Counted from the first letter of the stretch, positions 3,815 through 55,653 are shown. The stretch: 64,000 bases of DNA from an uncultured Verrucomicrobiota bacterium (GCA_946533675.1 CAMNBZ010000012.1:4323-68322); one strand, 5' to 3'. A program made the numbers and translations. Notes: generated by a model not told the origin, from the letters alone.

Positions 3815-3994
3815 GTTTGCACCATCCTTTTTCGGAAAATGATGCCCAGACGAGCGGCAACGAACGTCCGCAGTTCATGTGGTTGACTCCACTCAGGACA
3901 CGCGCCCCTTCTCGTCAGTCCTGCGAACGGTGGAAAGTATACCAAATCTTGTGCGGCAATGCAACAGGGGACACAAGAAATTGTGGGTGGGATC

Positions 3995-20027: not shown

Positions 20028-22181
20028 ATGACACGTTCAGTTCGCCAAATCTTCGCGCTCGCCGCCGTCGCCGCGGCGCTTCCCGCCCTCGCCGCGCTTG
20101 AGCTCGGCGCGCCGTTCACCGACGGCGCGGTGCTCCAGCGGGACACGCCGCTGCGGATCTGGGGCCGCGCCGACGCCGGCTCCACCGTCGCCGTCACCTT
20201 CGGCGAAAAGTCCTGGACGACGACGGCGGGCACGGACGGCGCATGGCGGCTCACCCTGCCGCCGATGGCCGCCTCCGCCGAGCCGCGCACGCTGAACGTC
20301 ACCTCCGCCGCCTACGCCGGCGCGGAGCCGAACGCGGCGCTCGCCGTGCATGACATCCTCGTCGGCGAGGTGTGGATCGTCTCGGGCCAGTCGAACATGG
20401 AATGCCCGATCTGGGGCGAGAACCCGCGCTTCCGCGACGGCAAGGGCGCGCTGATGGTGTCGATGACGCACCTGCCCGACGTGCGCTTCGTCAAGAACGC
20501 GCGCGCCGCCGCCGCCGAGCCGCAGGCCGTCAAGGCGACGTGGCTCAAGTTCGAGCCCGCGAGCTTCGACTACACGAAATTCGAGCACCGCCTGCCCCTT
20601 TCGGCGATCGCGTTCTACTTCGCGCGCGAACTGCACGCGGCGCTCGGCGTGCCCGTCGGCATCGTCGACTCGACCTGGGGCGGCACGGGCATCGACGGGT
20701 GGATTCCCGAATGCGGCCTCGCCGCGTCCGACGAGCCGCGCGTCAAGGCGCTCGCCGCGAGCCGCGGGCGCGGCTGCCAGAACGCGAAGACGCTCTGGAA
20801 CGCGATGGTCGACGCCTACGCGCCCATGTCGTTCCGCGCGATGGCGTGGTACCAAGGCTGCGCGAACGCCGGACGCGATCCGGAGCTCTACGCGGCCAAG
20901 CTGAAGGCGCTGCGGGACGGGTGGGCCGCGCGCTTCGAGAAGGCGGACCTGCCAATCTACATCTTCCAGCTCGCGCCGTACAAGCAGTCGTGGTGGGACA
21001 TCTGGAAGGCGCAGGAGCAGTACGCCGCGTCCGAGCCGCGCGCGGCGCTAATTCCGCTCTTCGATGCCGGCAACTACAACGACATCCACCCGAACGACAA
21101 GGAGACGGCCGCGCAGCGCCTGCTCGCCGCCGCGCTGTCGCGCGAATACGGCTTCAAGGGGATCGCGCCCGCGCCGGCGGCCGTGAAGTCATGGAAGATC
21201 GACGGCGGCAAGTTCGCGCTCGAATTCGGCGGCTGCCATTCGCTCTACGTCTACACGCCCGACGCGCGGCCGTGCGCCGCGTTCGAGATCACGGGCGCGG
21301 ACGGCAAGTGGCAGCCGGCCGTGATCGACCAGTACGAGCGGCCGTCCAAGCACTTCAGCCGCAAGATCACCGTTTCGTCCGCCGCCGTGCCGGAGCCGAA
21401 GGCGCTCCGGTACTGCCACGCGCGGCCATTCACCGGCACGCTCTACGGCGACAACGCCCTTCCCGTCGCGCCGTTCGAGCTGATCGATCCGTCGTACGAC
21501 AAAACGACGCGCGAGTCGACGCTCCTGCCCGTGCCGGCGAACGCCGATCCGGAAGGCTGGTGGATGAAGCGCCACGCGGAGAAGCTCGCGGAAATCGCCG
21601 CGAACAAGGACCGCCGCTACGACATCGTGATGCTCGGCGACTCGATCACGCACTTTATGGAATCGAAGCCGGAGCGCGGCGGCGAGGCGTACGCGCAGTT
21701 CACGAAGGATTACAAGGTGCTCAACCTCGGCTACGGCGGCGACCGCACGGAGAACGTCATCTGGCGCGAGCTGAACGGCGAACTGGACGGCTACCGCGCG
21801 AAGCTCTTCACGGTGATGATCGGCACGAACAACAACGACTGGGGCGACAGCGACCCGGAGCACGTGTCGTACGGCATCCGCCGCGTGCTGATGATGATCC
21901 GCGAGAAGCAGCCGCAGGCGAAGATTCTGCTCGTCGCGATCACGCCGCGCGGCAAAACCGCCGCGGACCCGGCGAACCAGAAGAACATCCGCACGAACTA
22001 CGCGGCGAAGCAGCTGGCGAACGGGCAGAGCATCGTCTGGCTGGACGTGGGCGACAAGTTCCTGGGGCCGGACAAGAACCTCAAGCCGGGCCTGACGGGC
22101 GACAATCTGCATCCGAACGAAGCGGGCTACCGCGTCTTCCTCGACGCCCTCCGCCCCGCGATCGAAGGTCTGCTCAAATGA
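20028..22181 (+). CDS. Secreted carbohydrate esterase: sialate O-acetylesterase-like (SASA) domain fused to SGNH/GDSL hydrolase domain
   Basis: Signal peptide. The SASA-like block contains GQSNM. The C-terminal block contains VMLGDSIT...GYGGDRT...HPNEAGY, which are the SGNH blocks I, II and V. Confidence 0.7.
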   Translation: MTRSVRQIFALAAVAAALPALAALELGAPFTDGAVLQRDTPLRIWGRADAGSTVAVTFGEKSWTTTAGTDGAWRLTLPPMAASAEPRTLNVTSAAYAGAEPNAALAVHDILVGEVWIVSGQSNMECPIWGENPRFRDGKGALMVSMTHLPDVRFVKNARAAAAEPQAVKATWLKFEPASFDYTKFEHRLPLSAIAFYFARELHAALGVPVGIVDSTWGGTGIDGWIPECGLAASDEPRVKALAASRGRGCQNAKTLWNAMVDAYAPMSFRAMAWYQGCANAGRDPELYAAKLKALRDGWAARFEKADLPIYIFQLAPYKQSWWDIWKAQEQYAASEPRAALIPLFDAGNYNDIHPNDKETAAQRLLAAALSREYGFKGIAPAPAAVKSWKIDGGKFALEFGGCHSLYVYTPDARPCAAFEITGADGKWQPAVIDQYERPSKHFSRKITVSSAAVPEPKALRYCHARPFTGTLYGDNALPVAPFELIDPSYDKTTRESTLLPVPANADPEGWWMKRHAEKLAEIAANKDRRYDIVMLGDSITHFMESKPERGGEAYAQFTKDYKVLNLGYGGDRTENVIWRELNGELDGYRAKLFTVMIGTNNNDWGDSDPEHVSYGIRRVLMMIREKQPQAKILLVAITPRGKTAADPANQKNIRTNYAAKQLANGQSIVWLDVGDKFLGPDKNLKPGLTGDNLHPNEAGYRVFLDALRPAIEGLLK

Positions 22182-22184
22182 TCC

Positions 22185-22540
22185 TGACGGGGGGAAAACT
22201 GACTGGGGGAAGCGTTGACTGGGGGAAGCGGCGTCCCGCCGCTTTAATCAAAAAAAAACTACGCATCTCGCCCTGACTGGGAGAAGCTTGACTGGGGGAA
22301 GCGGCGTCCCGCCGCTTTGGTCAAAAAAACGCTACGCACCTCGCCCTGACTGGGAGAAGCTTGACTGGGGGAAGCGGCGTCCCGCCGCTTTGGTCAAAAA
22401 AACGCTACGCACCTCGCCCTGACTGGGAGAAGCTTGACTGGGGGAAGCGGCGTCCCGCCGCTTCTTTTCCTTTTTGTAACAAGCGGCGAGACGCCGCTTC
22501 CCCCAGTCAACGCTTCCCCCAGTCGATTTCCCCAGTCATC
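22185..22540. repeat. REP-like array: ~73-bp unit x3-4 (each with GACTGGGGGAAGC direct duplicates and the hairpin AAGCGGCG-TCC-CGCCGCTT), ending in an inverted copy
   Basis: Period of 73 bp between 22270, 22343 and 22416. A perfect 8-bp stem hairpin. The last module (22466-22525) is the reverse complement of the first. Confidence 0.85.
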
Positions 22541-22603
22541 AGTCGCACTTCCAATCACATTTTCACCTTGCTTTCCGCAGAGTGCTTTTGCTAAAATCGT
22601 GTC

Positions 22604-23284
22604 ATGTGCGAACACGATTCCGAATCGATTCCCTTTGACGCAGCGTCCGAGAACAGGAATCCCCGTTTCATGTCGCGTGAAAGGGAAGTCACAAAGCGAA
22701 GCGCCAATCTCCCGCATTGGGAACAGGGCGACACCTGCGTTTTCGTGACCTTTCGCCTTGCCGATTCCATTCCCGAAAACACGATAGGACGGTTGAAGGA
22801 GGAGCGAGACGACTGGCTGGCCCAACATGCTAAGCCTTGGGACGACGAAGAGAAAAAGGAATATATCACAGCTTTCGGCAATGTGCTGGAGAAATGGCTG
22901 GACGACGGACTCGGCTCCTGCGCGCTCGGACAACCTGACAATCTTGCAATGATGTGCGACGCGATGCGTCACTTCGACGGCAAACGCTATGTCTTGTACG
23001 CATTTGCGGTGATGCCCAACCACGTGCATGCGCTGTTCAGCCCGATCGGCGATTTCTCCGCAAGCGGGATTCTCCATTCATGGAAGAGCTTCACCGCGCA
23101 CAAAGCCAGACGCACAAACGGCGATTCCGGTCCGTTCTGGCAGAAAGAAAGCTGGGATCGGCTGATCCGCGACGACCGCCATTTTGCGAATGTCGTCAAG
23201 TACATCGCGAGGAATCCGCGCAATGCCGGCGGTGTCGGCTATGCGTATGTGAGAGCTGACCTTCTCCACCACACCTCGCCCTGA
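22604..23284 (+). mobile_element. REP-associated tyrosine transposase (RAYT / IS200-like Y1 HUH transposase)
   Basis: 226 aa. ANLPHWEQGDTCVFVTFRL, HUH motif MPNHVHALF, and catalytic Tyr context NVVKYIARNP. Flanked on both sides by REP arrays. Leaderless start 6 nt after TGCTAAAAT. Lower GC than the surroundings. Confidence 0.75.
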
Positions 23285-23460
23285 CTGGGGGAAGGGCTGA
23301 CTGGGGGAAGCGGCGTCCCGCCGCTTCTGTCAAAACGCTACACTCCTCGCCCTGACTGGGGGAAGCGGCGTCCCGCCGCTTCTTTATAAAATTGAACTTT
23401 TCCTTTTTGTAGCAAGCGGCGAGACGCCGCTTCCCCCAGTCAACGCTTCCCCCAGTCATC
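23281..23460. repeat. REP-like array (second flank of the RAYT), terminal inverted module identical to 22466-22525
   Basis: Copies of GACTGGGGGAAGCGGCGTCCCGCCGCTT, then TTTTCCTTTTTGTA[A/G]CAAGCGGCGAGACGCCGCTTCCCCCAGTCAACGCTTCCCCCAGTC. Confidence 0.85.
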
Positions 23461-23487
23461 AGCCAACCTCAAGAAACCGTTTTCCCC

Positions 23488-23567: not shown

Positions 23568-26036
23568 ATGCGTTCAGACAAACTGTTTCTCGCAATCGCG
23601 CTCGCAACAACGGCGGCAAACGGCGCAAAACTGACCGTCTCGGCAGACGGCGTCAATCTCGACGGCACACCGCTTGCGGACAGAAAGCTGACCAAGAACA
23701 CAGAGGTTGCTGAACTGGAAATATCAGGCGGACAACTTGATCTGGCCGGACATAATTTGACCTTTAACGGAACCGTCAACGCGCTGAACATCCACACTGA
23801 TGCATCAGCATCCATCAACAGTAGTATAAGCGAGGGCGAGCCAGCGGTTATTAAGTTTAAATTTACAGACGGAGCGCGGCGGTTCGCAGGCGATCTGCTA
23901 AAACCCATAACGTTTAAGGGCAATCTGACGCTTGAACTTAATGGCCTGTCCACCGGCGGAAAGTGGCTTTTTGGTGGCAATGAAGCTGACAACCCCCATA
24001 ACAACAAGCACATAGGCGGCACAATTTTTGACCAATATTACATCAGTGCCGGTGCAGATATTAATACAGTCGCAAACTACGCCCGCTTTGGTGGAAACAT
24101 AAACAATAAGGTCCACAGCACTGATTTAGGGGAAGGACCTGTCACACTTAAAAATGGTTCTATGTTGGTGTATACTGGCCCTGATGACAAGATTCAACCA
24201 TGGACCAAACTTATTGCCGTAAATGAATCTGCTAATTCATACACGAATGTTCTCAGACTTGAGAATCGAATGGTGCTAACAGGCACATCTGTCGAGGTGG
24301 ACGAATATTCAAGGCTGATGATTGCAACTAAGAACAAATATCTGGCTTGGACTAACGATTTTTCCAAGGTTCGCGGGTGGCTTGGGTTCTGTGGTGAATA
24401 TTCAAGTTCTATTCGCGCGGTGTTCACGGGCACAGAAAATGTCGGTTTCCCCAATGCTCATGTTCAGGTGTTCGAGCCTGACAAGGAAGATAAGGGAATC
24501 AAGCAAGTTTATCAACTTCGGTTTGAATCCAAACAGGATGTGCCAATTAAAATCGGAGAACTTTCAACGCCCGACACTGTAAAACAAGCAACTACAAATG
24601 TTGTTATCGTTAATGTCAGCGGGGCAACACGGACGTTGGAAATAGGAGGGCTTGGAACCGATTCAACATTCTACGGCAAGATTTCTGCAAATGGCGCTTC
24701 TGGACTTAATGTCACGAAGGTCGGCCAAGGCACGCTCACTCTCGGTGGCGAAAACACCTATACCGGCGACACAACTGTATCTGCAGGCACATTGAAGGTT
24801 CAAATGCTGACCTCAGGGGCATGGCCAACCGGAAAATTTACTGTAGAAAACGGTGCAAAGCTTGAATTGACGCTTCGTAACAACAGTTCTACGCGCCTGG
24901 GTGATGACGGATGCCGCAACATACCGACTGGCAGCACCATCAATTTTTCAGCAACGAACCCAAGTTATTTGCCTCGACTCGGGGCTGTAGAGGACTTTAT
25001 AGGGATTATTAATTTCATAGATTCGGATGAGACTGTGACAGCTGTTGGATTTGTGAAAGAAGACAACTATACTTATGGCAGCAATGATATTTCATGGGGA
25101 ATCCTCGGAGAACCCACAGCAAGAAAGGTTCTTTTCCATGTTGACGCAAATACTAATGCAAAAGTCAACATGGGTGCATTTAACATGCCGAGCGAGAATG
25201 CGGTTCTCTATTGCAAACCAAGCACGCAAACCACGTTTAATATTGGCGCACTCAATACGGATAGCTACATCAACGGATGGATTACCGCACGAACTGCCAC
25301 AAGCAAAATCGAGATAAATCATACAGGCTCAGGCACACTTACACTTGGAAAAGATTTCAAGACAACTGTTTGTGACATACAAGGAACGCCGATTACATAT
25401 AACGACGATGCAAAGGCCGATGTCACGATTAACATCAAGAGCGGCGCCCTCGTCAATTACGCGGATCTTTCCAAAATTAATTTGAAGGTGCAGAGTGGTA
25501 CAACAATTGTCAATTACGGGACATTGGGTGCTGTTGAGCTGTATAAGTATGAGAACGATGGCTCGACCATCACTACCGTTGCAAGAATGGATGCAGAGGG
25601 GAAGATAACCTATGCGATGAACTCTGGTCGTGCGGTGGAAATTGCCAAATTGGCATATAAATATTCAAACGATGAACTTGCCTCAAATTATGACTCTTAC
25701 TTTGAAACAAAAGTGACATCAAACGGCGACAACGCCTACACCTATGAAATAACGCTTAAGGACGAAGCAAAACCCACGATTGGGGCGGGAAGTGACGGCC
25801 AGGCCGCGACAATTGAAGGCCAGAGCATCAAATTCAACCATGAGAAGATGAATCTGAAGCCGGGGCTGTATTATGCGATCAGCGCGAAGGAAAAACCGGA
25901 CGAGGAAGCAACGGCAGATTCCTACAAGCTCTATACGACGGAGAACGCCAGCAACTTCTCGCTTTCGGCTGATTTGCCGGAAAGCGGGGTCAAGTACTAC
26001 AAGGTGCTGGTCAGCGATAATGAAAACGGGAAGTGA
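23568..26036 (+). CDS. Large secreted protein with autotransporter-associated beta-strand (PATR) repeats
   Basis: 822 aa. Signal peptide MRSDKLFLAIALATTAANGA. Repeats of the form GxGTLTLGGENTYTGDTTVSAGTLKV. No detectable C-terminal beta-barrel. GC is ~50%, against ~68% for the window. Confidence 0.7.
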   Translation: MRSDKLFLAIALATTAANGAKLTVSADGVNLDGTPLADRKLTKNTEVAELEISGGQLDLAGHNLTFNGTVNALNIHTDASASINSSISEGEPAVIKFKFTDGARRFAGDLLKPITFKGNLTLELNGLSTGGKWLFGGNEADNPHNNKHIGGTIFDQYYISAGADINTVANYARFGGNINNKVHSTDLGEGPVTLKNGSMLVYTGPDDKIQPWTKLIAVNESANSYTNVLRLENRMVLTGTSVEVDEYSRLMIATKNKYLAWTNDFSKVRGWLGFCGEYSSSIRAVFTGTENVGFPNAHVQVFEPDKEDKGIKQVYQLRFESKQDVPIKIGELSTPDTVKQATTNVVIVNVSGATRTLEIGGLGTDSTFYGKISANGASGLNVTKVGQGTLTLGGENTYTGDTTVSAGTLKVQMLTSGAWPTGKFTVENGAKLELTLRNNSSTRLGDDGCRNIPTGSTINFSATNPSYLPRLGAVEDFIGIINFIDSDETVTAVGFVKEDNYTYGSNDISWGILGEPTARKVLFHVDANTNAKVNMGAFNMPSENAVLYCKPSTQTTFNIGALNTDSYINGWITARTATSKIEINHTGSGTLTLGKDFKTTVCDIQGTPITYNDDAKADVTINIKSGALVNYADLSKINLKVQSGTTIVNYGTLGAVELYKYENDGSTITTVARMDAEGKITYAMNSGRAVEIAKLAYKYSNDELASNYDSYFETKVTSNGDNAYTYEITLKDEAKPTIGAGSDGQAATIEGQSIKFNHEKMNLKPGLYYAISAKEKPDEEATADSYKLYTTENASNFSLSADLPESGVKYYKVLVSDNENGK

Positions 26037-26054
26037 GCCCCCCCATGCGCCCTG

Positions 26055-26076
26055 CTATCCCCGCGAGCGGGGATAG
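26055..26076. promoter_or_regulatory. Palindrome CTATCCCCGCG-A-GCGGGGATAG, 57 nt upstream of PATR gene 2
   Basis: Perfect 10-bp arms. Paralogous to the site at 23488-23507. Confidence 0.5.
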
Positions 26077-26132
26077 CGCGAAGCGCAAAAAAATATTAAA
26101 CTATATGTGTCAATCAACCAAGGAGGGTTTCC

Positions 26133-28289
26133 ATGCGTTCAAACAAACAGATTCTCGCAATCGCGCTCGCAACAGCGGCAATGACCGTAACAGAGCTGTG
26201 GGCGGCAGACTTGAAGGTCAGCGCTGACCGAAAGCTGGAAATTACGTCCGCAACCTCATACGAGAACCTCATTCTGGAGAACGGCGCGACGCTGACGCTG
26301 ACTTCTAACGGAAACGTCCTCGAAATCACCGGCGCAATCAGCGGCACGGGGACGATCGAGCTGAACAAGGGCAAGATCGGAATTGTCGCCGACGTGCCTT
26401 CGACGGTCGCGTGGAAGATTACCGGCACAGGAACCACTTCTGCCGAAAACCGCATCATTTCGCGCGTCGCAGGGAGCGACAACATCAAGAAGATCAAAGG
26501 TCCGCTGACAGGAACGGGAAGCGTCCGCGTAATGGGAGGACCTGCAAGTGGCATCGGCGGCATATCGGTCGCGGGCGACAACAGCAATTTCGAAGGCAAA
26601 CTCATCATCGGGAAAAATTCCTACAACCGCCTGGGCGCATCGACGGCCGGCGGCGCGGAAATGTCGCTCGAATACGACGGCAACTCCGGCAACGATGGAT
26701 CGCCCGATTTCGGCGGCGGAACGCTGGAATTCGGCTCGATCTACACCACTTCGCGCACGACGGAAGGTTATCCGTGGCGTTTCAACGACGGCGACTACAC
26801 CCTCAAAGTCGGCGCGCTCAACAAGGACAACGACCGCATCAGCATCAAGCTCGGCGAAAGCAACGCCACGACCGGCAAGGTGCGCATCGAAAAGGTCGGC
26901 ACGGGAACGCTTGAACTCTGGAACGTGAACAACCGCAACGGCATTGACATCAACGGCGGAACTGTTCTCGTCACCTCCGACGGTGCGCTTGCCAACGGCA
27001 AAGGAGACATCACCTTCGGCGGCGGCACGCTGAAATACGGTGTCAACGCGTGGGCGGACGACGGCACGGCACTCGCAACGCCCGCCCCCGTCACGACCGA
27101 CTATTCTGCGCAGATCAAAAATTCAACGGCAGCAATCGCCATCGACACCGGCGACAACGATATCATTTTTAATACCGCTCTGGCCGCATCAAACGTTGGC
27201 GGACTCGTGAAGCTCGGCGGCGGCACGCTCGAAGTGAAGGGAGATAATGCGTATAGCGGCAAGACGATCGTCTCCAACGGCACATTGAAGGTTGCATTCA
27301 AATACTACACAGAAGAAGGTCTGACAGGTCGCATGTTCGAAGCGGAAGCCGGTGCGAATCTTGAAGTGACCATGACCAGCCATTTGTCAAATCGCCACGC
27401 CTCCGAATCCAGCCTTCTCAACATCTTCCCGGATGGATCGACCTTGAACTTCATTGAGGACGATACCCGCGGCATGCCGCGTTTCACCAATGCCGCGAAA
27501 CTGAAAGGAACCGTCAACTTCCTGAACGACAAGGACAACACGACCTCTGGTGGCGGCTTTGTCGGCAGCGTGGCAGAGCTGGGCAGCAATGACATCGACT
27601 GGGGCATTCTGGGCGCCCCGGAAACACTGACCCGTGTGTTTGACATTGAGTCTGCTGCGAGCGGCGGCACGATCTATTTCGGAAATCTGCGCATGCCCTC
27701 CCAGAACGCCGAAGTGTACATGAAGCGCAAAGCGATATTCAAGGTCGGTGCCTTGGGGAAAGAGGGATCTGTCAACGGCACCCTCCTCATGGGGAACAAC
27801 AACGATTTCACATGGAACCAGGTCGGCGGCAAGATGACGTTTGGAAACAGCTTCAAAGTTGTCACCACCGGCTCTGCAACCTTCAACTTTGATGCAGGAG
27901 AAGTCGTCAACAACGCAAACCTTTCCGACTATACGGTTTCGCTCGCGGACGGCGTGACGCTTTCCGGCGCGGGTACGTGGCCGGCGAACATGATGCTGCC
28001 GGCGAGCTACCGGGTCGCGGCAATCGATCCTGTGGACGGCGCGACACCCCCGACGCTCGACCTCGACGTCGACTTCTCCAAGGCGACGCTGGACAATCGG
28101 CCGACGAAAGAAACGGTCACAACGCTCGACACCGAGAAGACCTACAAGATCTTCGCGGCAAAGTCGATCGCCAACTGGACCACGGCCGAAATCGCCGTGC
28201 GGCCGAACGGCCGGTGGAAAGTCGTCCAGCGGGGCGACAGCCTTGTTCTCAAGTTCTTCCACAAGGGCTTCGCCGTCATTCTTCGCTGA
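26133..28289 (+). CDS. Large secreted PATR-repeat protein, paralog of 23568..26036
   Basis: 718 aa. Conserved signal peptide MRSNKQILAIALATAAM. Block GGGTLEVKGDNAYSGKTIVSNGTLKV. Low GC. Confidence 0.7.
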   Translation: MRSNKQILAIALATAAMTVTELWAADLKVSADRKLEITSATSYENLILENGATLTLTSNGNVLEITGAISGTGTIELNKGKIGIVADVPSTVAWKITGTGTTSAENRIISRVAGSDNIKKIKGPLTGTGSVRVMGGPASGIGGISVAGDNSNFEGKLIIGKNSYNRLGASTAGGAEMSLEYDGNSGNDGSPDFGGGTLEFGSIYTTSRTTEGYPWRFNDGDYTLKVGALNKDNDRISIKLGESNATTGKVRIEKVGTGTLELWNVNNRNGIDINGGTVLVTSDGALANGKGDITFGGGTLKYGVNAWADDGTALATPAPVTTDYSAQIKNSTAAIAIDTGDNDIIFNTALAASNVGGLVKLGGGTLEVKGDNAYSGKTIVSNGTLKVAFKYYTEEGLTGRMFEAEAGANLEVTMTSHLSNRHASESSLLNIFPDGSTLNFIEDDTRGMPRFTNAAKLKGTVNFLNDKDNTTSGGGFVGSVAELGSNDIDWGILGAPETLTRVFDIESAASGGTIYFGNLRMPSQNAEVYMKRKAIFKVGALGKEGSVNGTLLMGNNNDFTWNQVGGKMTFGNSFKVVTTGSATFNFDAGEVVNNANLSDYTVSLADGVTLSGAGTWPANMMLPASYRVAAIDPVDGATPPTLDLDVDFSKATLDNRPTKETVTTLDTEKTYKIFAAKSIANWTTAEIAVRPNGRWKVVQRGDSLVLKFFHKGFAVILR

Positions 28290-28312: not shown

Positions 28313-28392
28313 CTGACTGGGGGAAGCGGCGTCCCGCCGCTTGCTAAAAAGGAGAAGGTTCAGATTACGAAGCGGCGGGACGCCGCTTCTCC
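28313..28392. repeat. REP pair (direct + inverted copy of GACTGGGGGAAGCGGCGTCCCGCCGCTT)
   Basis: CACTGACTGGGGGAAGCGGCGTCCCGCCGCTT ... AAGCGGCGGGACGCCGCTTCTCCCAGTCA, lying between PATR gene 2 and the histidine kinase. Confidence 0.8.
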
Positions 28393-28462
28393 CAGTCACC
28401 AGTTCATCTCCCGGTCATCTGTCGCCCTTCACATTGCCTGTTAGTTTTGGTAAAATTGTCGC

Positions 28463-29848
28463 ATGACGCTTAAGACCAGAATTCTCGTCACCCTCGCCTT
28501 CGCCGCGGCCCTCGGCCACGGCGAGGTGCTTTTCACCACCAACGACGCGCCCGCGCGCGTGGAAGGCGTGGCCGTCTGGCACCGGCCCGCCGACCAGTAC
28601 TACTACCTCCTCGACGACGCGGGCGGCGCGTGGCGAATCCGCAACGCCGATGGCCGGGTGCTGATCCGTCCGGGCGACCGCGTGCGCGTCGAGGGCGTCA
28701 AACCCAGGGGTTCGGCCCGCCCGCGCATCGAACGCGCGACGACCGAGAAGATCGGCACGGGCAGCCTCCCCGAACCGATCGAGATGACGGTCGACGAGAT
28801 GTACGCGGTCGGCGACGACGGCGAGGCGGGCCGCCGCGCGTGGTACGCGCGCCTCGTGGCGGTGCGCGGCATCGTCACCGACATCAACCGCCGCGAGACA
28901 TACACGCAGATCCTCCTCGGGCCCAAGAGCCGCTCCGTCCAGATCGCCCTGCCGATCCGCTGGAGCGATCCCCTTCCCAAGGGTCTCGCGTTCGGCGCGT
29001 TCGTGCGCGTGCGCGGCATCGGCCACTACGACCCGCTGCCGCCGGACCACAAGGGCGCGGTGACCGGGCTCGTGAACTTCAGCGTCTACCCCGAGCGCCT
29101 CGCCGACCTCCAGATTCTCGACGAGGCCCCCTTCTGGACGCCGCTGAAAATCTTCGCCGCCTGCACCGCGTTCGCGTTCGTAATGCTCGGCGTCGTCGCG
29201 CTCGTCCTGCGCGCGCGCGTACGCGACCGCATCGCCGCGGACGCCGCGCGGCGCGAACGGCTCCGGCTCACGAGCGAGCTGCACGACAACTTCCAGCAGC
29301 TGCTCGCCGGATGCATGTTCCGCCTCGGCGCGGCGATGGGCAAGGTCGGGAAGGACGACGACGCGGCGCGCGCCCAGCTGGAGCTGCTGCGCAACTCGCT
29401 CAACCACACGCAGTCTTCCCTGCGCTCCGCGCTGTGGGGGCTGACGGAGGAGGCGGAAGGCCCCGCCGCGCTCTCGGAACTCTTCAGGTACGCCGCGAGC
29501 CGGCTGCCGCAGTGGACGGGCATCGTCCATTTCACGGTGCGCGGGCGCGAGCGCGCCGTCGCGCGCAAGTGCTCCGGCTCGCTCCTGCTCATTCTCCAGG
29601 AGGCCGTCGGCAACGCCCTCCGTCACGGCGGCGCGAAGCGCGTCGACGTCATCGTCGACTTTCTGGACAACGCCCTGGTCTTCGGCGTCCGGGACGACGG
29701 CTGCGGTTTCGACAGCCGCACGCCGCCGAAGAGCGGGCATCTCGGGCTGGTGACGATGCGCCAGCACGCGGAAGGCCTCGGCGGCACGCTGACCGTCGTC
29801 AGCCGCGAGGGCGAAGGAACAACCGTGACGGTCAGGATACCTCTATGA
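28463..29848 (+). CDS. Sensor histidine kinase (NarL/HisKA_3 type) with N-terminal periplasmic domain
   Basis: 461 aa. Signal peptide/TM, a periplasmic domain, a second TM, the H-box LTSELHDNFQQLL, and a HATPase region (N box ...NALRHG...). Leaderless start 6 nt after TGGTAAAAT. Confidence 0.8.
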   Translation: MTLKTRILVTLAFAAALGHGEVLFTTNDAPARVEGVAVWHRPADQYYYLLDDAGGAWRIRNADGRVLIRPGDRVRVEGVKPRGSARPRIERATTEKIGTGSLPEPIEMTVDEMYAVGDDGEAGRRAWYARLVAVRGIVTDINRRETYTQILLGPKSRSVQIALPIRWSDPLPKGLAFGAFVRVRGIGHYDPLPPDHKGAVTGLVNFSVYPERLADLQILDEAPFWTPLKIFAACTAFAFVMLGVVALVLRARVRDRIAADAARRERLRLTSELHDNFQQLLAGCMFRLGAAMGKVGKDDDAARAQLELLRNSLNHTQSSLRSALWGLTEEAEGPAALSELFRYAASRLPQWTGIVHFTVRGRERAVARKCSGSLLLILQEAVGNALRHGGAKRVDVIVDFLDNALVFGVRDDGCGFDSRTPPKSGHLGLVTMRQHAEGLGGTLTVVSREGEGTTVTVRIPL

Positions 29849-35794: not shown

Positions 35795-38275
35795 TCAGGA
35801 AACCGCCTCACGTCGCTTGCGAGTCGCCACCGCCGTCAGCGGATCTTCCGGCCAGGCGTGCTTGGGGTAGCGCCCGCGCATATCCTTGCGCACCAGCTGG
35901 TAGCCTTCGCGCCAGAAACCGGCCAGATCCTTCGTGATCTGGATCGGCCGCTGCGCCGGCGAAAGCAGCGTCATGACGATCGGCACGCGCCCGCCCGCCA
36001 CCTTCGGCGTCTGCATGAGCCCGAAGCACTCCTGCAGGCGCACCTGCACCGTCGGCTCGTCGCCTTCGTAATGGATCATCATGCGGCTGCCGCTCGGCAC
36101 CTCCATGCGCGCGGGCGCGAGGCGGTCCAGTTCGCGGCGGTCGTGCCCCGCCTCGGCCAGCAGATAGTCGAAGACCGCGAAGAGGTCGAGCCGCTCCAGA
36201 TCCTTCCATTTCGTCATCCCGCCGATGAATCCCGCAAGCGCGTCCAGGATGCGTTCATCCGTCGGTTCGGGCCATCCCGTGGGGTCTGTCCCCACGTTCC
36301 TCGTGGGGTCAGACCCTTCCGAAACTTCAAAAACACGGCCTAAAAACGCAATTCTGGCACGATATTGAAGCGATTCCTTCGTCCAGCACGGCAGATTGGC
36401 GACGCCCTTCTGCCGGATGCCGTCCAACAGCGCGCGCGCCACCTCGTCCCCGCGGCGCGCCAGTTCGGCGGGCGACGTCACCGGCCGTTCGTCCATCACC
36501 ATCTCGCCGAGCTTGCGCCGCACGACGCACTTGACGCGCTCCTCACGCCGGTCCCACGCGCAAAAGTCCTCTTCCGTCAGCCGGTCGCCGAAGAGGCCGA
36601 CGATCTCCGCCTCGTCGATGGGGCAGGCGAGAAACACCTTGGCGTCGCCCGGCCGGTCGTCGACCTCGCAGACGACGAGATACGGCGCTTTCGCGAGCGC
36701 GTCGCTCGATTCCAGGTACGCGCCGCGCCCCGACACCATCCGGAACGTCCCGTTCCCGCGGTTCTTCGCCACGCGATCGGGATAGGCGCGCGCCAGAAGC
36801 GCCCCTTCCGATTCCGCCGCGCCGCCGCCGCGCCGCGCGGGCGCGTGCAGAAATTTCTTCGCCAGCCGCAGCACGCGGCTCGAATACGGGCGGTTCGGCG
36901 TCTCGCGCACCTCGTCGAGCACCTTGCGGATGTCCGTCTCGCGCGTCTTCGCCCCCTCCTCGATGATGGCCGCGAGGAGCGCCGCCGTCTCGCCGCCGCT
37001 GCCGAGAACCATGTTCGCGAGGCGCGGATGCATCGGCAGCTTCGCCATCGCCTCGCCCTTCTTCGTCAGCCGCCCGTCCGCCGCGATCGCGCCCAGCAGC
37101 TTCAGCAGTCCCGCCGCCTGATCCCACGCGCTCGCCGGCGGCACCGTCAGCCACGGCAGATCCTCCCGCCGCCGCGCGCCCCACGCCGCGCTCGTCAGCA
37201 CGAGCGCGCAGAGATCCGCGTCGAGGATTTCGGGATTCATCTTCTTCGGCCGCGACAGATTCTCGCCCGCGTCCCACAGCCGGTAGCAGACGCCCGCGCG
37301 CACGCGTCCCGCGCGTCCGCGCCGCTGCTCCGCGCGGTCCATCGACAGCGGCACCGTCTTGAGCCCGCTCATGCCCGTCGTCGGCGAAAAGCGCGGAATG
37401 CGCATGAGCCCCGAATCGATGACGACCGAAATGCCCGGCAGCGTCACCGACGTTTCCGCGAGGCTCGTCGCCAGGATCACCTTCCGCCGCCCGCCCATCT
37501 CGAAGACGCGGTCCTGCGCCTCCTTCGGCAGCGACCCGTACAAAGGCAGGATGTCGCACCGCGGCACTTCTGCCGCGCCGCGCGCCGCCTGCAGCTCCTG
37601 CAGCGCCGCCTCCGCACGGCGGATTTCGCCCTCGCCCGGCAGGAAGCAGAGGATGTCGCCGTCCGATTCCTTCAGCGCGCGCACCACCGCCGCGCTCATC
37701 GACAGGTCGCCGAGATACTTCGTCTCGACCGGGAACATCCGCCCGTCGGCGTGGATTTTCGCGACGTCCGCGCCGAGGTGCGCCGCCACCTCGTCCGCGT
37801 CCAGCGTCGCCGACATCACGACGAGCCGCAGGTCCTCGCGCAGCGCGCGCTTCGTCTCGAGCGCCAGCGCAAAGCTCGTGTCGCACGCGAGCGAGCGTTC
37901 GTGGAATTCATCAAAGATGACGAGCCCGACGTCCGCAAGCTCCGGGTCGTTCAGGAGCCGCTGCGTGAGCAGCCCCTCGGTGACGATCTCCAGCCGCGTC
38001 GCCGCGCCGACCTTGCGCTCCAGCCGCACCTGGTAGCCGACGGTGCCGCCGACCGCTTCGCCGAGCTTGTGCGCGATGAACGACGCGCACGTGCGCGCCG
38101 CCAGCCGCCGCGGTTCGAGCATCACGATCTTCTTGCCGCCGAGCCACGGCGCGTCGAGAAGCGCGGGCGGCACGCACGTCGTCTTGCCGCTGCCGGGCGG
38201 CGCCGTCAGGACGACGTCGCGCCCCGCCGCGAGCGCGCGCCGGATGTCGCCCAGCTTCTCCTCGACCGGGAACAT
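35795..38275 (-). CDS. hrpB: ATP-dependent helicase HrpB (DEAH-box)
   Basis: Start at MFPVEEKLGD. APPGSGKTT, DEFHER, SATLD and the HrpB C-terminal domain. The upstream part of the 1197-aa track ORF is an alternate-frame artefact. Confidence 0.85.
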   Translation of the reverse strand: MFPVEEKLGDIRRALAAGRDVVLTAPPGSGKTTCVPPALLDAPWLGGKKIVMLEPRRLAARTCASFIAHKLGEAVGGTVGYQVRLERKVGAATRLEIVTEGLLTQRLLNDPELADVGLVIFDEFHERSLACDTSFALALETKRALREDLRLVVMSATLDADEVAAHLGADVAKIHADGRMFPVETKYLGDLSMSAAVVRALKESDGDILCFLPGEGEIRRAEAALQELQAARGAAEVPRCDILPLYGSLPKEAQDRVFEMGGRRKVILATSLAETSVTLPGISVVIDSGLMRIPRFSPTTGMSGLKTVPLSMDRAEQRRGRAGRVRAGVCYRLWDAGENLSRPKKMNPEILDADLCALVLTSAAWGARRREDLPWLTVPPASAWDQAAGLLKLLGAIAADGRLTKKGEAMAKLPMHPRLANMVLGSGGETAALLAAIIEEGAKTRETDIRKVLDEVRETPNRPYSSRVLRLAKKFLHAPARRGGGAAESEGALLARAYPDRVAKNRGNGTFRMVSGRGAYLESSDALAKAPYLVVCEVDDRPGDAKVFLACPIDEAEIVGLFGDRLTEEDFCAWDRREERVKCVVRRKLGEMVMDERPVTSPAELARRGDEVARALLDGIRQKGVANLPCWTKESLQYRARIAFLGRVFEVSEGSDPTRNVGTDPTGWPEPTDERILDALAGFIGGMTKWKDLERLDLFAVFDYLLAEAGHDRRELDRLAPARMEVPSGSRMMIHYEGDEPTVQVRLQECFGLMQTPKVAGGRVPIVMTLLSPAQRPIQITKDLAGFWREGYQLVRKDMRGRYPKHAWPEDPLTAVATRKRREAVS

Positions 38276-53264: not shown

Positions 53265-54140
53265 TCAGCAAGCCAAATCAAGCGGCAGGTCGGAAATATC
53301 CTTGAGCCGTTTGCCGTCAATCATGTTGTTCAACAAAATCATCGCCTCGCCACGACTCCTCGACGAACACGTGCGCACGGCGTCAAGCAATTCATAAAGC
53401 GCAAAATGATAGACGCAGTCAATGTCGCCGGTCCCGAGCGCAAGCGAAGCGATACGCGACGGCGACGGCTCGGCCGTGACAACCACAATGTGCGGCACGC
53501 GCCCCTTTCTGTCACGCATGAGATTAAGCGCCTCGGTTCTGCTGTTCTGCGCGCGGTCGCTTCGCATGGTCCATTTCGCCGATATCGACGCGTGCAAGAT
53601 GTCCCTGCCGCCGTTGCTCTTGCGAAGGTCGGCCCTTTTGCAAAGCGTATCATCAACAAAAGCGTCCAGTTTATTGATTTCCGCATCTTCACACAATCCG
53701 CGCGACACAATCACATCGGGAGACACCAAATAGTCGTTTCCAAGCGCCGTCTGTAGTTTCGGGTTGTTGCGGACGGCCTCCGCAAGGTAGAACAAGTGCT
53801 CGTATTGAGCAAAGTCGGCGGTTTTGATCTTGCTTTTGTTGCCAAGACGCGCAACCGTCCATTTCCCCGGTCGCAGATTCTGAAGCTTAGGGAAAGTCGC
53901 AGCTACGAAATCCGCCACCGCCCCTTCAAAATCCGCTCCCGCAGTCTGCCCCTTCTTCTTTTTCGCGACAGTCTGTGCGCCGAGCGTCTTGGCGATACAC
54001 GTCGCAAGAGCGCAGGAAAACTCGTTTTTCCGGTCTGCATTCGAGGCAACGCCTGTCGTGTCAAAGCAGAGAATCTTCCGCGAAACAAGCGCCTGATGAA
54101 AAGCGCTGCGCGCCTGTGCAAAAACGATCTTACGCGTCAT
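53265..54140 (-). CDS. Type II restriction endonuclease, NgoMIV family (predicted GCCGGC specificity)
   Basis: Start at MTRKIVF with an AGGAGG RBS. GVASNAD, RPGKW, FAQYEHL, LHASISAKWTMRSDRAQN, GRVPHIVVVTAEPSPSRI and ALGTGDIDCVYHFALYEL resemble NgoMIV as recalled. Low GC. Overlaps the methyltransferase stop by 11 nt. Confidence 0.65.
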   Translation of the reverse strand: MTRKIVFAQARSAFHQALVSRKILCFDTTGVASNADRKNEFSCALATCIAKTLGAQTVAKKKKGQTAGADFEGAVADFVAATFPKLQNLRPGKWTVARLGNKSKIKTADFAQYEHLFYLAEAVRNNPKLQTALGNDYLVSPDVIVSRGLCEDAEINKLDAFVDDTLCKRADLRKSNGGRDILHASISAKWTMRSDRAQNSRTEALNLMRDRKGRVPHIVVVTAEPSPSRIASLALGTGDIDCVYHFALYELLDAVRTCSSRSRGEAMILLNNMIDGKRLKDISDLPLDLAC

Positions 54141-55653
54141 TTTTAAGGCACCTCCTGATCTGAATCCCGACAGCCTTTGCAACGGGCGGCGGGAATGCGT
54201 TTCCTATCATGCGGCAAGCGGCCGTCTTGCGGTTGCCAAAAAACCAACCGGGCGGGAAACCCTGAATCCGTGCTATCATCTCCTTGGTCAACTTCGGGCT
54301 GCCGACAAAGTCCTTTGCCGGCGGTTCGTTTGCGATACCAAGGCCATCGACACCGAGTTCCGCCCATGCGCGGCGCGCGCGCGTCGGCCCGAGGTCAGGG
54401 CCGCCGTGCTTCTTGCTGCCGCCGACAATGGTTGGCGCGATCTTATCAGCCTTGGCGACCCATTCATCAAGGCCACGCCATCCATTCGCACCCATGAGCT
54501 CTTTGAGCGCCTTCCCTACCGTCGGGGCGGCCTGACGATTCACCGCAGGATATGCGAACGCCCCTTTTTCATCGTTGCGGATGCCAACGATCACAACCCT
54601 TGGACGAATCTGCGGGACGCCATAGTCGCTTGCCTGGAGCAGCTTGATGTCGGCACGATAGCCCAAGCGCCTGATTGCAGTCAAAATGCTGTTGCGATAA
54701 CCCTCAAACTTCGGATCAAGGAAGCCGCGCACATTCTCAAGCATCACCGCACGCGGACGCATCTCCGCAATCAACCGGATCGCCTGCGGGAAGAGGTCGC
54801 GCTCGTCATCCGCCCCCAACTGCTTCGATGCAACCGAAAACGGCGGGCACGGGACACCGCCAGCCAGCAGATCGATGCCTTGGTAAGGCGTGCCATCAAA
54901 ATCATGCACATCACCGCAGATGACGTTCCAGTCGGGCTTGTTTTCCCTCAGCACCTTGCAATAATCATGCTCATACTCGACAAGCGCCACATGCCTGAAT
55001 CCGGCGCGATCAAGGCCGAGCGCCTGCCCGCCCGCTCCCGCACATATCTCGACGCACGTCAACTCGCCATCTCTTCTCGCCGCGCCAACCAGACTGCGGG
55101 CAATTTGAAGGCCATAGTCAAAGCCGTCGTTCGTCTGAAAGAAATCGTCCTGAACCGGATTGAAGGTCGTGGCGGATTTCCAGCGCTTGACGTAGGGCTT
55201 CAGGCAATCGAAGACGTACGGCATCGACTTTCCGCCCGTGACGGGATAGGGCTTCGAGTAGAACGCCTCGTCGATCTTCACGCACGGGCAGCGCGCCGAG
55301 CTGACATAGACGTTCGCCGACCTGCGCCCCAGAAGCTTCGCGGGCGTCGCCTCGGCGACCAGCTCGTACAGCGCATATTTCTCGCCGTGCGGCCGCGCGG
55401 CCGGCGAATAGCCGCTCCGCGTCAGCGCCGCACCGTCCGTCACCTCCTTGAATTTCGCCGTGAACGCATAGTTCGGCTTCCCTTCGGCAAACAGCACGAC
55501 TCCCGAAATCTTTTCGTGGAAGGCCAGTTTGCCGCATTTCGGCAGCGGCAGATTGTAGAGCCGTTTCTCTGCGATCCACCGCTCGTTCGCAGGGCGATAG
55601 GTCCCTACGAGCACCGTGGCGTCAGCCGAGGCCGATTTGCGGGAAGCAGCCAT
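54130..55653 (-). CDS. DNA (cytosine-5)-methyltransferase with ~190-aa N-terminal extension of unknown function
   Basis: The C-terminal 310 aa carry ICAGAGG (motif I), GVPCPPFS (IV), ENV (VI), QIRPRV (VIII) and GNAFPPPVAKAVG (X). There is no stop across the N-terminal extension. Only 7 nt separate it from the gltX stop. Confidence 0.8.
   Translation of the reverse strand: MAASRKSASADATVLVGTYRPANERWIAEKRLYNLPLPKCGKLAFHEKISGVVLFAEGKPNYAFTAKFKEVTDGAALTRSGYSPAARPHGEKYALYELVAEATPAKLLGRRSANVYVSSARCPCVKIDEAFYSKPYPVTGGKSMPYVFDCLKPYVKRWKSATTFNPVQDDFFQTNDGFDYGLQIARSLVGAARRDGELTCVEICAGAGGQALGLDRAGFRHVALVEYEHDYCKVLRENKPDWNVICGDVHDFDGTPYQGIDLLAGGVPCPPFSVASKQLGADDERDLFPQAIRLIAEMRPRAVMLENVRGFLDPKFEGYRNSILTAIRRLGYRADIKLLQASDYGVPQIRPRVVIVGIRNDEKGAFAYPAVNRQAAPTVGKALKELMGANGWRGLDEWVAKADKIAPTIVGGSKKHGGPDLGPTRARRAWAELGVDGLGIANEPPAKDFVGSPKLTKEMIARIQGFPPGWFFGNRKTAACRMIGNAFPPPVAKAVGIQIRRCLKNDA

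Follow-up and report, generated by a model that had tools for sequence, protein, structure and literature searches.

A probable REPtron in a rumen Kiritimatiellae bacterium: a single-copy RAYT gene between REP hairpins

Based on the analysis of a 64,000-nucleotide stretch of DNA from an uncultured Verrucomicrobiota bacterium (GCA_946533675.1, CAMNBZ010000012.1:4323-68322; the whole stretch is called the window from here on), we describe a locus that is very probably a REPtron: a single-copy, chromosomal and vertically inherited gene for a REP-associated tyrosine transposase (RAYT) of the TnpAREP-like HUH-Y1 type, placed between its cognate repetitive extragenic palindromic (REP) hairpins. The host is a rumen Kiritimatiellae bacterium, and the locus is a known kind of system in a new lineage. 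It adds a well-documented REPtron from the Kiritimatiellae and leaves the understanding of such systems unchanged; in the literature, we found no mention of REPs in this class. The features of the locus are listed below, with positions counted from the first letter of the window. A foot is the 5' single-stranded part of a REP, a foot-only copy is a partial REP, and a REPIN (REP doublet forming a hairpin) is a pair of REPs in opposite orientations.

22199-22463, + strand: left-flank tandem array, a 73-nt unit repeated 3.6 times at 96% identity
22481-22524, - strand: inverted REP (22481-22508) and foot-only copy (22512-22524), within the module 22464-22524
22568-22597, + strand: candidate RAYT promoter, with -35 TTGCTT (22568-22573), an 18-nt spacer and an extended -10 TGcTAAAAT (22589-22597)
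22604-23284, + strand: RAYT gene, an open reading frame (ORF) for a 226-aa HUH/Y1 transposase with the motifs MPNHVHAL and YIARNP
23283-23381, + strand: right flank, with a foot-only copy (23283-23295), a REP (23299-23326) and a second REP (23354-23381)
23397-23457, - strand: second 61-nt module, with an inverted REP (23414-23441) and a foot-only copy (23445-23457)
28315-28397, no single strand: distal REPIN, with a REP on the + strand (28315-28342) and a REP on the - strand (28370-28397)

The RAYT gene and its flanking hairpins

A first, sequence-only reading of the window had recognized a RAYT-type Y1 transposase of 226 aa by the motifs MPNHVHAL and YIARNP, both of which the ORF bears, and had proposed a search against Y1 and RAYT models. 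The protein matches Pfam Y1_Tnp (PF01797) over residues 127-201 with 26.8 bits, above the gathering cut-off of 23, and its top NCBIfam model is REP_Tyr_transpos (NF047646; E 7e-18, 64.9 bits), while the NCBIfam IS200 model gives 19.3 bits against a cut-off of 55. The sole transposase matched in a sequence search of the PDB is 4ER8, the E. coli TnpAREP, with which the HUH and Tyr motifs align. An AlphaFold2 model built with 40 homologues in the alignment (pLDDT 86, pTM 0.81) retrieves the same structure first in Foldseek (E 2.8e-6), followed by the ISDra2, IS200 and IS608 TnpA structures.

The HUH motif is H140-V-H142; W179-Q180 and D185-R186 follow, and the catalytic Tyr200 lies within YIARNP. 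H140, H142, W179, D185, R189 and Y200 are invariant in the alignment of 40 homologues, and the family has in common an N-terminal NLPHWxQ...FVTFRLADS module. YIARNP fits Y-x-x-x-N-P, the signature of class 2 (TnpAREP) among the TnpAY1 proteins (Quentin et al., PMC6006769), and differs from the Y-x-x-x-Q of IS200. Judged by these motifs alone, and not by a hidden Markov model, the protein would be a class 2 TnpAREP with subclass 2.7 as its best fit. The exact same protein is encoded on a contig of GCA_002449695.1, the closest annotated orthologue (in the genome SIG88) carries the annotation "hypothetical protein", and a PADLOC search gave no match for the window protein.

In the candidate promoter, TTG..TT and TGCTAnAAT are kept upstream of RAYT in all four orthologous regions; a strict sigma-70 consensus scan did not call it, and we propose it from this conservation. 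The ATG lies only 6 nt past the -10 element, which suggests that the RAYT mRNA is leaderless. A TAAAAT box 6 nt ahead of the ATG, with no visible Shine-Dalgarno sequence, is seen both at RAYT (22589-22606) and at a histidine kinase gene (28440-28465), and the mRNAs of the two genes may be leaderless.

The repeats flank the gene on both sides, as the sequence-only reading had described. The 28-mer GACTGGGGGAAGCGGCGTCCCGCCGCTT occurs 10 times in the window at up to one mismatch, and was found 0 times in 100 shuffles. Its copies start at 22217, 22290, 22363, 22436, 23299, 23354 and 28315 on the + strand and at 22481, 23414 and 28370 on the - strand, so that five stand to the left of RAYT, three to the right, and an inverted pair at 28315-28397 is the further pair that had been placed 5 kb away. 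All three REP clusters of the window are intergenic, and the distal one separates the second PATR gene from that of the histidine kinase. The 13-mer GACTGGGGGAAGC, which represents the foot, has 17 window matches at up to one mismatch against 0.1 expected; beyond the full REP units, these include seven foot-only partial copies that flank the RAYT gene.

Each 73-nt unit of the left array is composed of a foot-only copy (13-mers at 22201, 22275, 22348 and 22421), a full REP and an A-rich spacer with CTACRCAYCTCGCCC at its end. The 61-nt modules 22464-22524 and 23397-23457 are 98% identical. They had been read as an identical inverted module of about 60 bp; the repeat is real, but the modules are direct repeats of each other, and what is inverted is the REP inside each.

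As single-stranded DNA (ssDNA), a single REP hairpin folds at -11.6 kcal/mol (z -4.2), and the pairs fold far more stably: -38.6 kcal/mol (z -10.7) for the REPIN-like doublet of REP 22436-22463 and inverted REP 22481-22508, -39.7 kcal/mol (z -10.8) for the doublet of REP 23354-23381 and the inverted REP in 23397-23457, and -39.3 kcal/mol (z -10.7) for the distal REPIN. An Rfam scan returned only sub-threshold miRNA-like matches, of the kind that generic long hairpins give.

The stop codon of RAYT, TGA (23282-23284), is also the TGA of a foot-only REP copy, and the array spacer that precedes the REPs (CTACRCAYCTCGCCC-TGACTGGG; 22255-22290, 22328-22362, 22401-22435 and 23330-23362) is similar to the final ~20 nt of the RAYT ORF. 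Because the stop is shared with a foot copy and the spacer is like the end of the ORF, these sequences suggest that the flanking arrays grew via duplication of the junction between the gene end and the REP.

Dispersal of the REP family and inheritance of the locus

In related genomes, the 28-mer occurs in many dispersed copies. In a pattern scan over species-representative genomes (one genome per species), the REP pattern was present in 83 stretches, all from eight metagenome-assembled genomes (MAGs) that bear the label Kiritimatiellae, Lentisphaerae or Verrucomicrobia and of which several come from ruminant guts. Both the wider occurrence of the repeat, as seen in related genomes, and the host from the Planctomycetes-Verrucomicrobia-Chlamydiae (PVC) superphylum suspected in the sequence-only reading are thus borne out, as Kiritimatiellae MAGs carry the family in many dispersed copies. 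The REP-bearing blocks contain about 150 units at up to three mismatches, of which 56 are in MAG202, 32 in SIG88 and 32 in Tb.RUG.298, arranged as 55 singlets, 22 stand-alone convergent doublets, and tandem arrays. Adjacent +/- pairs (n=32, the 22 doublets included) are spaced by 55-60 nt from start to start, with a mode of 58.

The alignment of 141 copies defines a conserved unit of 31 nt with sharp conservation edges, T-GACTGGGG-GAAGCGGCG-TC[C/T]-CGCCGCTTC, made of a 9-nt foot TGACTGGGG, a 9-bp stem and a TCC or TCT loop; the top strand is TGACTGGGGGAAGCGGCGTCCCGCCGCTTC. The hairpin seen in the first reading stands, with its 28-nt unit and 8-bp stem corrected to these values. About half of the family copies have the TCT loop, and most feet carry GGGGG, with GGGAG in a minor set. 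Doubly compensated changes of the stem occur at position 7 (GC to CG, 8 copies) and also at positions 3, 4 and 8. A foot-anchored search found 152 feet with the hairpin next to them. Genome-wide, 89 nine-mer matches lack a hairpin, no excess over the approximately 140 estimated by chance (9-mer, one mismatch, 660 kb, both strands); only the 13-mer foot copies adjoining RAYT are significant.

The HrpB helicase gene has an in-frame REP (peptide DWGKRRLAAS) in MAG202 and Tb.RUG.298 but none in the window orthologue (35819-38273), a difference consistent with mobility. The nucleotide alignment of occupied and empty HrpB genes has 73% identity, too diverged to define insertion ends, so that the protein-level comparison alone is usable. 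A second empty-site comparison, of the window region 3880-3960 with two loci that have a REP beside the orthologous gene (L064 and L015), was also discarded, as it gave no clean insertion boundary because the intergenic regions are not alignable. An ACTAAC/ACTAGC hexamer run abuts the REP in MAG202 and Tb.RUG.298 (L015:4900-5000, L064:2900-3020); the window has no such run in its orthologous intergenic region (3880-3960). Several REPs have longer identical flanks (GGTGGCCGTT-REP-AAGATATCTCACGCAGAGGCGCGGAGAAGC...; L001:7355-7470, L002, L005, L006, L021), and these copies seem to belong to a larger repeat that is dispersed in MAG202, SIG88 and Tb.RUG.298.

There is one RAYT in the window and one per genome among the REP-bearing blocks. 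Its orthologues have identities of 95.6% in JAZQGX (L034), 75% in MAG202 (L056) and 74% in SIG88 (L029). The gene order SASA/GDSL esterase, RAYT, PATR is syntenic in SIG88 and JAZQGX: the SIG88 locus has a 90%-identical esterase orthologue on one side of RAYT and a PATR gene on the other, and at the JAZQGX locus the PATR genes are retained, as is the histidine kinase. RAYT stands at a syntenic locus in at least three species. The layout of the repeats is common to all four species, with REP+...REP- about 115-125 nt 5' of the start codon and two REP+ directly past the stop; a closing REP- after RAYT is found in the window and L034 only. Pairwise dN/dS of the orthologues is 0.14-0.27 at a dS of 0.6-1.1, values that indicate purifying selection. 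Domesticated RAYTs have been reported to follow a housekeeping-like pattern (PMC5581495), and the sequence comparisons place this RAYT in the same pattern of vertical inheritance and purifying selection, which is the defining one for domesticated RAYTs of Proteobacteria.

To the sequence-only reading, the transposase and its repeat had looked foreign to the host, and a recently acquired mobile element of low GC content with an unusual repeat is one alternative to a REPtron. In its favor, the window RAYT has a GC content of 56% and a third-codon-position GC content (GC3) of 0.67, compared to a GC3 of 0.92-0.93 in the flanking core genes, and sits at the edge of a 6-kb lower-GC stretch. However, the locus and the GC content (~56%, GC3 0.63-0.68) are the same in all four orthologues, which are under purifying selection, and the REP family, some of whose copies occupy orthologous positions, is common to at least eight species-level MAGs. 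Two hypervariable PATR genes (47% and 58% GC) account for most of the low GC of the stretch (22-28 kb). A search of 72,556 plasmids gave one weak match, to a megaplasmid, and a phage search with RAYT gave none. We consider a recent foreign origin very unlikely, and the label "foreign" has to be withdrawn.

The two PATR genes (23568-28289), which encode surface proteins with PATR repeats, are bracketed by REP clusters and have 34-65% amino acid identity between species, compared to 90-95% for the flanking genes; this region may be a hypervariable adhesin locus.

Proposed activity, alternative explanations and known systems

By analogy with E. coli TnpAREP and IS608, the RAYT enzyme would bind the 9-bp REP hairpin of the top strand together with its 5' foot TGACTGGGG on transiently single-stranded DNA. 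H140 and H142 would hold a divalent metal, and Tyr200 would cut the strand and form a 5'-phosphotyrosine link. A CT or CC dinucleotide, perhaps the CT that is conserved within the foot, would be the expected site of the cut, and rejoining to another 3'-OH would move or copy REP singlets and REPINs round the chromosome. E. coli TnpAREP needs both the hairpin and the 5' GTAG for binding and cleavage, and pairing of A3 and G4 of the foot with a C|T cleavage site has been proposed (PMC3479197).

A number of observations weigh against the REPtron explanation. The score of 64.9 bits is under the REP_Tyr_transpos equivalog cut-off of 80, and a helical insertion of about 50 aa, common to the family of homologues but missing in E. 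coli TnpAREP, separates strand 1 from helix A; for these two reasons, the protein is not an orthologue of the characterized E. coli enzyme. The foot TGACTGGGG(G) is neither the canonical GT[AG]G nor CGTC, with CTGG replacing GTGG. All 10 REP copies of the window lie within 6 kb, in a window that covers 64 kb of the host genome; the MAGs of the relatives are fragmented, so that their counts are lower bounds; and three of the eight REP-rich MAGs (Tb.RUG.298, CAMOCC and UBA3624) have no RAYT in their REP-bearing blocks, which could be due to MAG incompleteness or gene loss. Finally, REP binding, the cleavage chemistry, the cleavage site and the spreading of REPs by the enzyme are all steps that we infer by analogy.

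Regarding the foot, its sequence CTGGG[G/A]G is best read as a variant of the known Pseudomonas foot GTGGGAG, since published P. putida REPs begin TGTGGGAG (PMC2817692). RAYT relatives in public data number at least 4,802, and we examined 94 loci: the window, two orthologues, 11 contigs obtained via exact-protein look-up and 80 metagenome loci. In about 60 of these 94 homologous loci (37-56% identity), the gene is accompanied on one side or on both by recurrent GC-rich hairpins that are particular to the locus and have a conserved foot, GT[AG]G or GG[AG]G. One of them (L096) has exactly the hairpin of the window, AAGCGGCG-TCC-CGCCGCTT, on a canonical GTAG foot; another (L092) has its TCT-loop variant, also with a GTAG foot; and a third (L099, 50% identity) has CTG[A/C]TGGGGG plus a TCT-loop hairpin. 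Given the same hairpin on GTAG feet and the resemblance of the foot to that of P. putida, the REP type cannot be called novel, as it had been in the sequence-only reading.

The residue aligned with H101 of E. coli (R186 in the window) varies together with the foot: Arg is found with 23 GG and 3 GT feet, and His with 2 GG and 30 GT feet (Fisher test of Arg/His against G/T at the second foot base, 7e-11 on the raw table). In a neighbor-joining tree, the Arg and His states largely form two large clades, with seven Fitch changes for the residue and four for the foot; the exceptions are the three Arg proteins with GT feet and the two His proteins with GG feet. The pattern is a clade-level association. 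It is suggestive of a recognition code, but we rejected it as proof of one because it involves two large clades with few independent changes. The result is a comparative series across distant homologues in which the same hairpin is joined to a changing foot (GTAG, GGAG, CTGGGGG) and in which the residue corresponding to the foot-reading one of E. coli TnpAREP is either Arg or His; this series could guide specificity experiments.

The hairpins could also be primarily host regulatory elements, such as terminators, mRNA stabilizers or protein-binding sites, which the RAYT need not mobilize. REP 22436-22463 and the T-rich spacer that follows it have the score of an intrinsic terminator, located just 3' of the esterase gene, and secondary roles of REPs have been reported in other bacteria (PMC3733652). 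Nevertheless, a T tail follows only one of the 10 copies, three terminators were found compared to 2.2 expected in shuffles, a 9-nt single-stranded foot has no role in termination, and about a third of the copies are inside genes. The gene and the repeat are also found together in four species and at about 60 loci of distant homologues, where the hairpins differ and the feet are related. A primarily regulatory nature is accordingly improbable to a high degree, and a secondary, exapted role of the REPs is compatible with a REPtron as well.

The fold and, by analogy, the catalytic chemistry are those of IS200/IS605 TnpA proteins (IS608, ISDra2), which likewise use hairpin ssDNA and a 5' guide (PMC3479197). 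An autonomous insertion sequence of this type, in which the transposase moves itself and the hairpins are subterminal ends, would account for the Y1/HUH fold, for the hairpins on both sides and for the 61-nt module repeated on either side of RAYT. Those elements, however, are multi-copy and autonomous, have YxxxQ and often come with tnpB, whereas here one copy per genome stays at a syntenic site in species diverged to a dS of 0.6-1.1, the hairpin occurs about 150 times apart from the gene, the Y motif is the class 2 YxxxNP, the IS200 model stops at 19 bits for a cut-off of 55, the locus has no tnpB, and the gene is nearly absent on plasmids and absent in phages. We give this explanation very little credence. 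A CRISPR-like or other spacer-repeat array beside a transposase gene, which a 28-nt palindromic repeat with a regular 73-nt period might recall, has next to no probability, given that the "spacers" are 96% identical to one another, that the repeat is in both orientations and dispersed as singlets and doublets in many genomes, and that there are no cas genes nearby and no Rfam match at threshold.

Among known systems, a REPtron at this locus can be compared to that of E. coli K-12 (TnpAREP, RayT/YafM, 4ER8; subclass 2.2 of Quentin, Group 2 of Bertels) with its REP repeats in bacterial interspersed mosaic elements (REP/BIME). Both combine the HUH fold and its single Tyr with a guide-binding segment, WQ...R, and with YxxxNP, and in both a single-copy gene has REPs in both orientations alongside and the same REPs dispersed (here, in the related genomes), each a hairpin with a conserved 5' single-stranded foot. 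The proteins have an identity of about 18%, and that of the window is without the inhibitory C-terminal tail and has D185-R186 in place of E100-H101; its REPs have a perfect 9-bp stem instead of a long bulged one, and TGACTGGGG instead of GTAG.

From its published description, the Pseudomonas RAYT/REPIN system (Group 3 of Bertels, subclass 2.5 of Quentin; P. putida REP TGTGGGAGCGGGC...) is alike in its short perfect stem, its xTGGGAG-type foot, which the window variant GACTGGGAGAAGC matches at TGGGAG, its REPINs at fixed spacing and its vertical inheritance. In Pseudomonas-type RAYTs, Asp stands in place of E100 and sometimes Arg in place of H101 (Quentin et al., PMC6006769). The differences are the phylum, the first foot base (C, not G), the GGGGG of most copies in the window family, and a longer protein with the N-terminal LPHWxQ...FVTFRLADS module. 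Subclass 2.7 was defined by [ND]HVH, WQ and YI[LR][NQ]NP, a median length of 213 aa, a long variable N-terminus and no C-terminal extension (Quentin 2018, PMC6006769). The window protein agrees with it in NHVH, WQ, YIARNP, Asp/Arg at the E100/H101 positions, its 226 aa and the absence of a C-terminal domain, whereas the REPs of that subclass are described as canonical GT[AG]G.

The sequence-only reading had also supposed that a RAYT with its REPs would be undocumented in the PVC superphylum. This was not so: REP/RAYT systems, with GTAG REPs of which many are intragenic, were reported in 2013 for Opitutus terrae, Rhodopirellula baltica and Planctomyces (Di Nocera et al., PMC3733652). The GTAG-17 to GTAG-20 REPs of Opitutus terrae, from the same superphylum, share with those described here the GC-rich stems and an apex with ...GCGTCCCGC..., and they too occur as REPs or dimers in frame in genes that include helicases, encoding GTGVPPV where TGGSGVPPL is found here. 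The present system differs in its class, Kiritimatiellae, and in the sequences of stem and foot.

REPs and RAYT cassettes within reading frames

In the related genomes, 54 of the 154 units are intragenic, compared to a coding fraction of 0.73, which means that REPs are depleted in genes but far from excluded. The 18 intragenic REPs that we inspected have a coding signature in the same frame on both sides, and Pfam domains of alpha-2-macroglobulin, a glycoside hydrolase family 2 (GH2) enzyme and the HrpB helicase are found on either side of a REP. The REP is open in five of its six frames, and 20 of 23 tandem spacings are divisible by three, as are those inside genes. In-frame sites include L030:3095-3180, L050:1741-1871, L003:1255-1340, L022:3309-3394, L037:4542-4569 and L063:7259-7286, among others. 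They encode peptides such as TGGSGVPPL...KRRDAASPS, and the arrangement resembles that in Opitutus terrae and that of the Rickettsia palindromic elements (RPEs). RPEs are likewise palindromes tolerated in frame within functional genes, but they have a CGTC tag and no linked RAYT known in that genome.

In several relatives, the whole REP-RAYT-REP cassette is embedded in restriction-modification (R-M) genes. It shares a single uninterrupted ORF with a type I HsdR (L160:199-2586), with a type III Mod just past the FAGSGTT motif (L100:34-2460, L120), and with the C-terminal domain of an MmeI-type protein (P0071); in other loci, the cassette stands between R-M genes, mod/res or hsdR/hsdS (L085, L089, L095, L103). 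Such fusion ORFs probably explain why several homologues are named "type I restriction enzyme R subunit" in JGI. In the literature that we searched, there is no mention of RAYT cassettes embedded in R-M genes.

It is unlikely that this RAYT clade and its REPs have adapted to life inside reading frames and not solely between genes. If that were true, with the arrangement selected and not merely tolerated, RAYT could serve DNA-processing or defence enzymes as a built-in ssDNA-nuclease domain, or it could be a gene-internal mobile cassette, and the REP-bracketed hypervariable PATR segment (23.5-28.4 kb) could be a hotspot of REP-promoted variation.

Elsewhere in the window, a C-5 cytosine DNA methylase gene (54130-55653, - strand) lies in another lower-GC patch (53-55 kb), unlinked to the RAYT locus.

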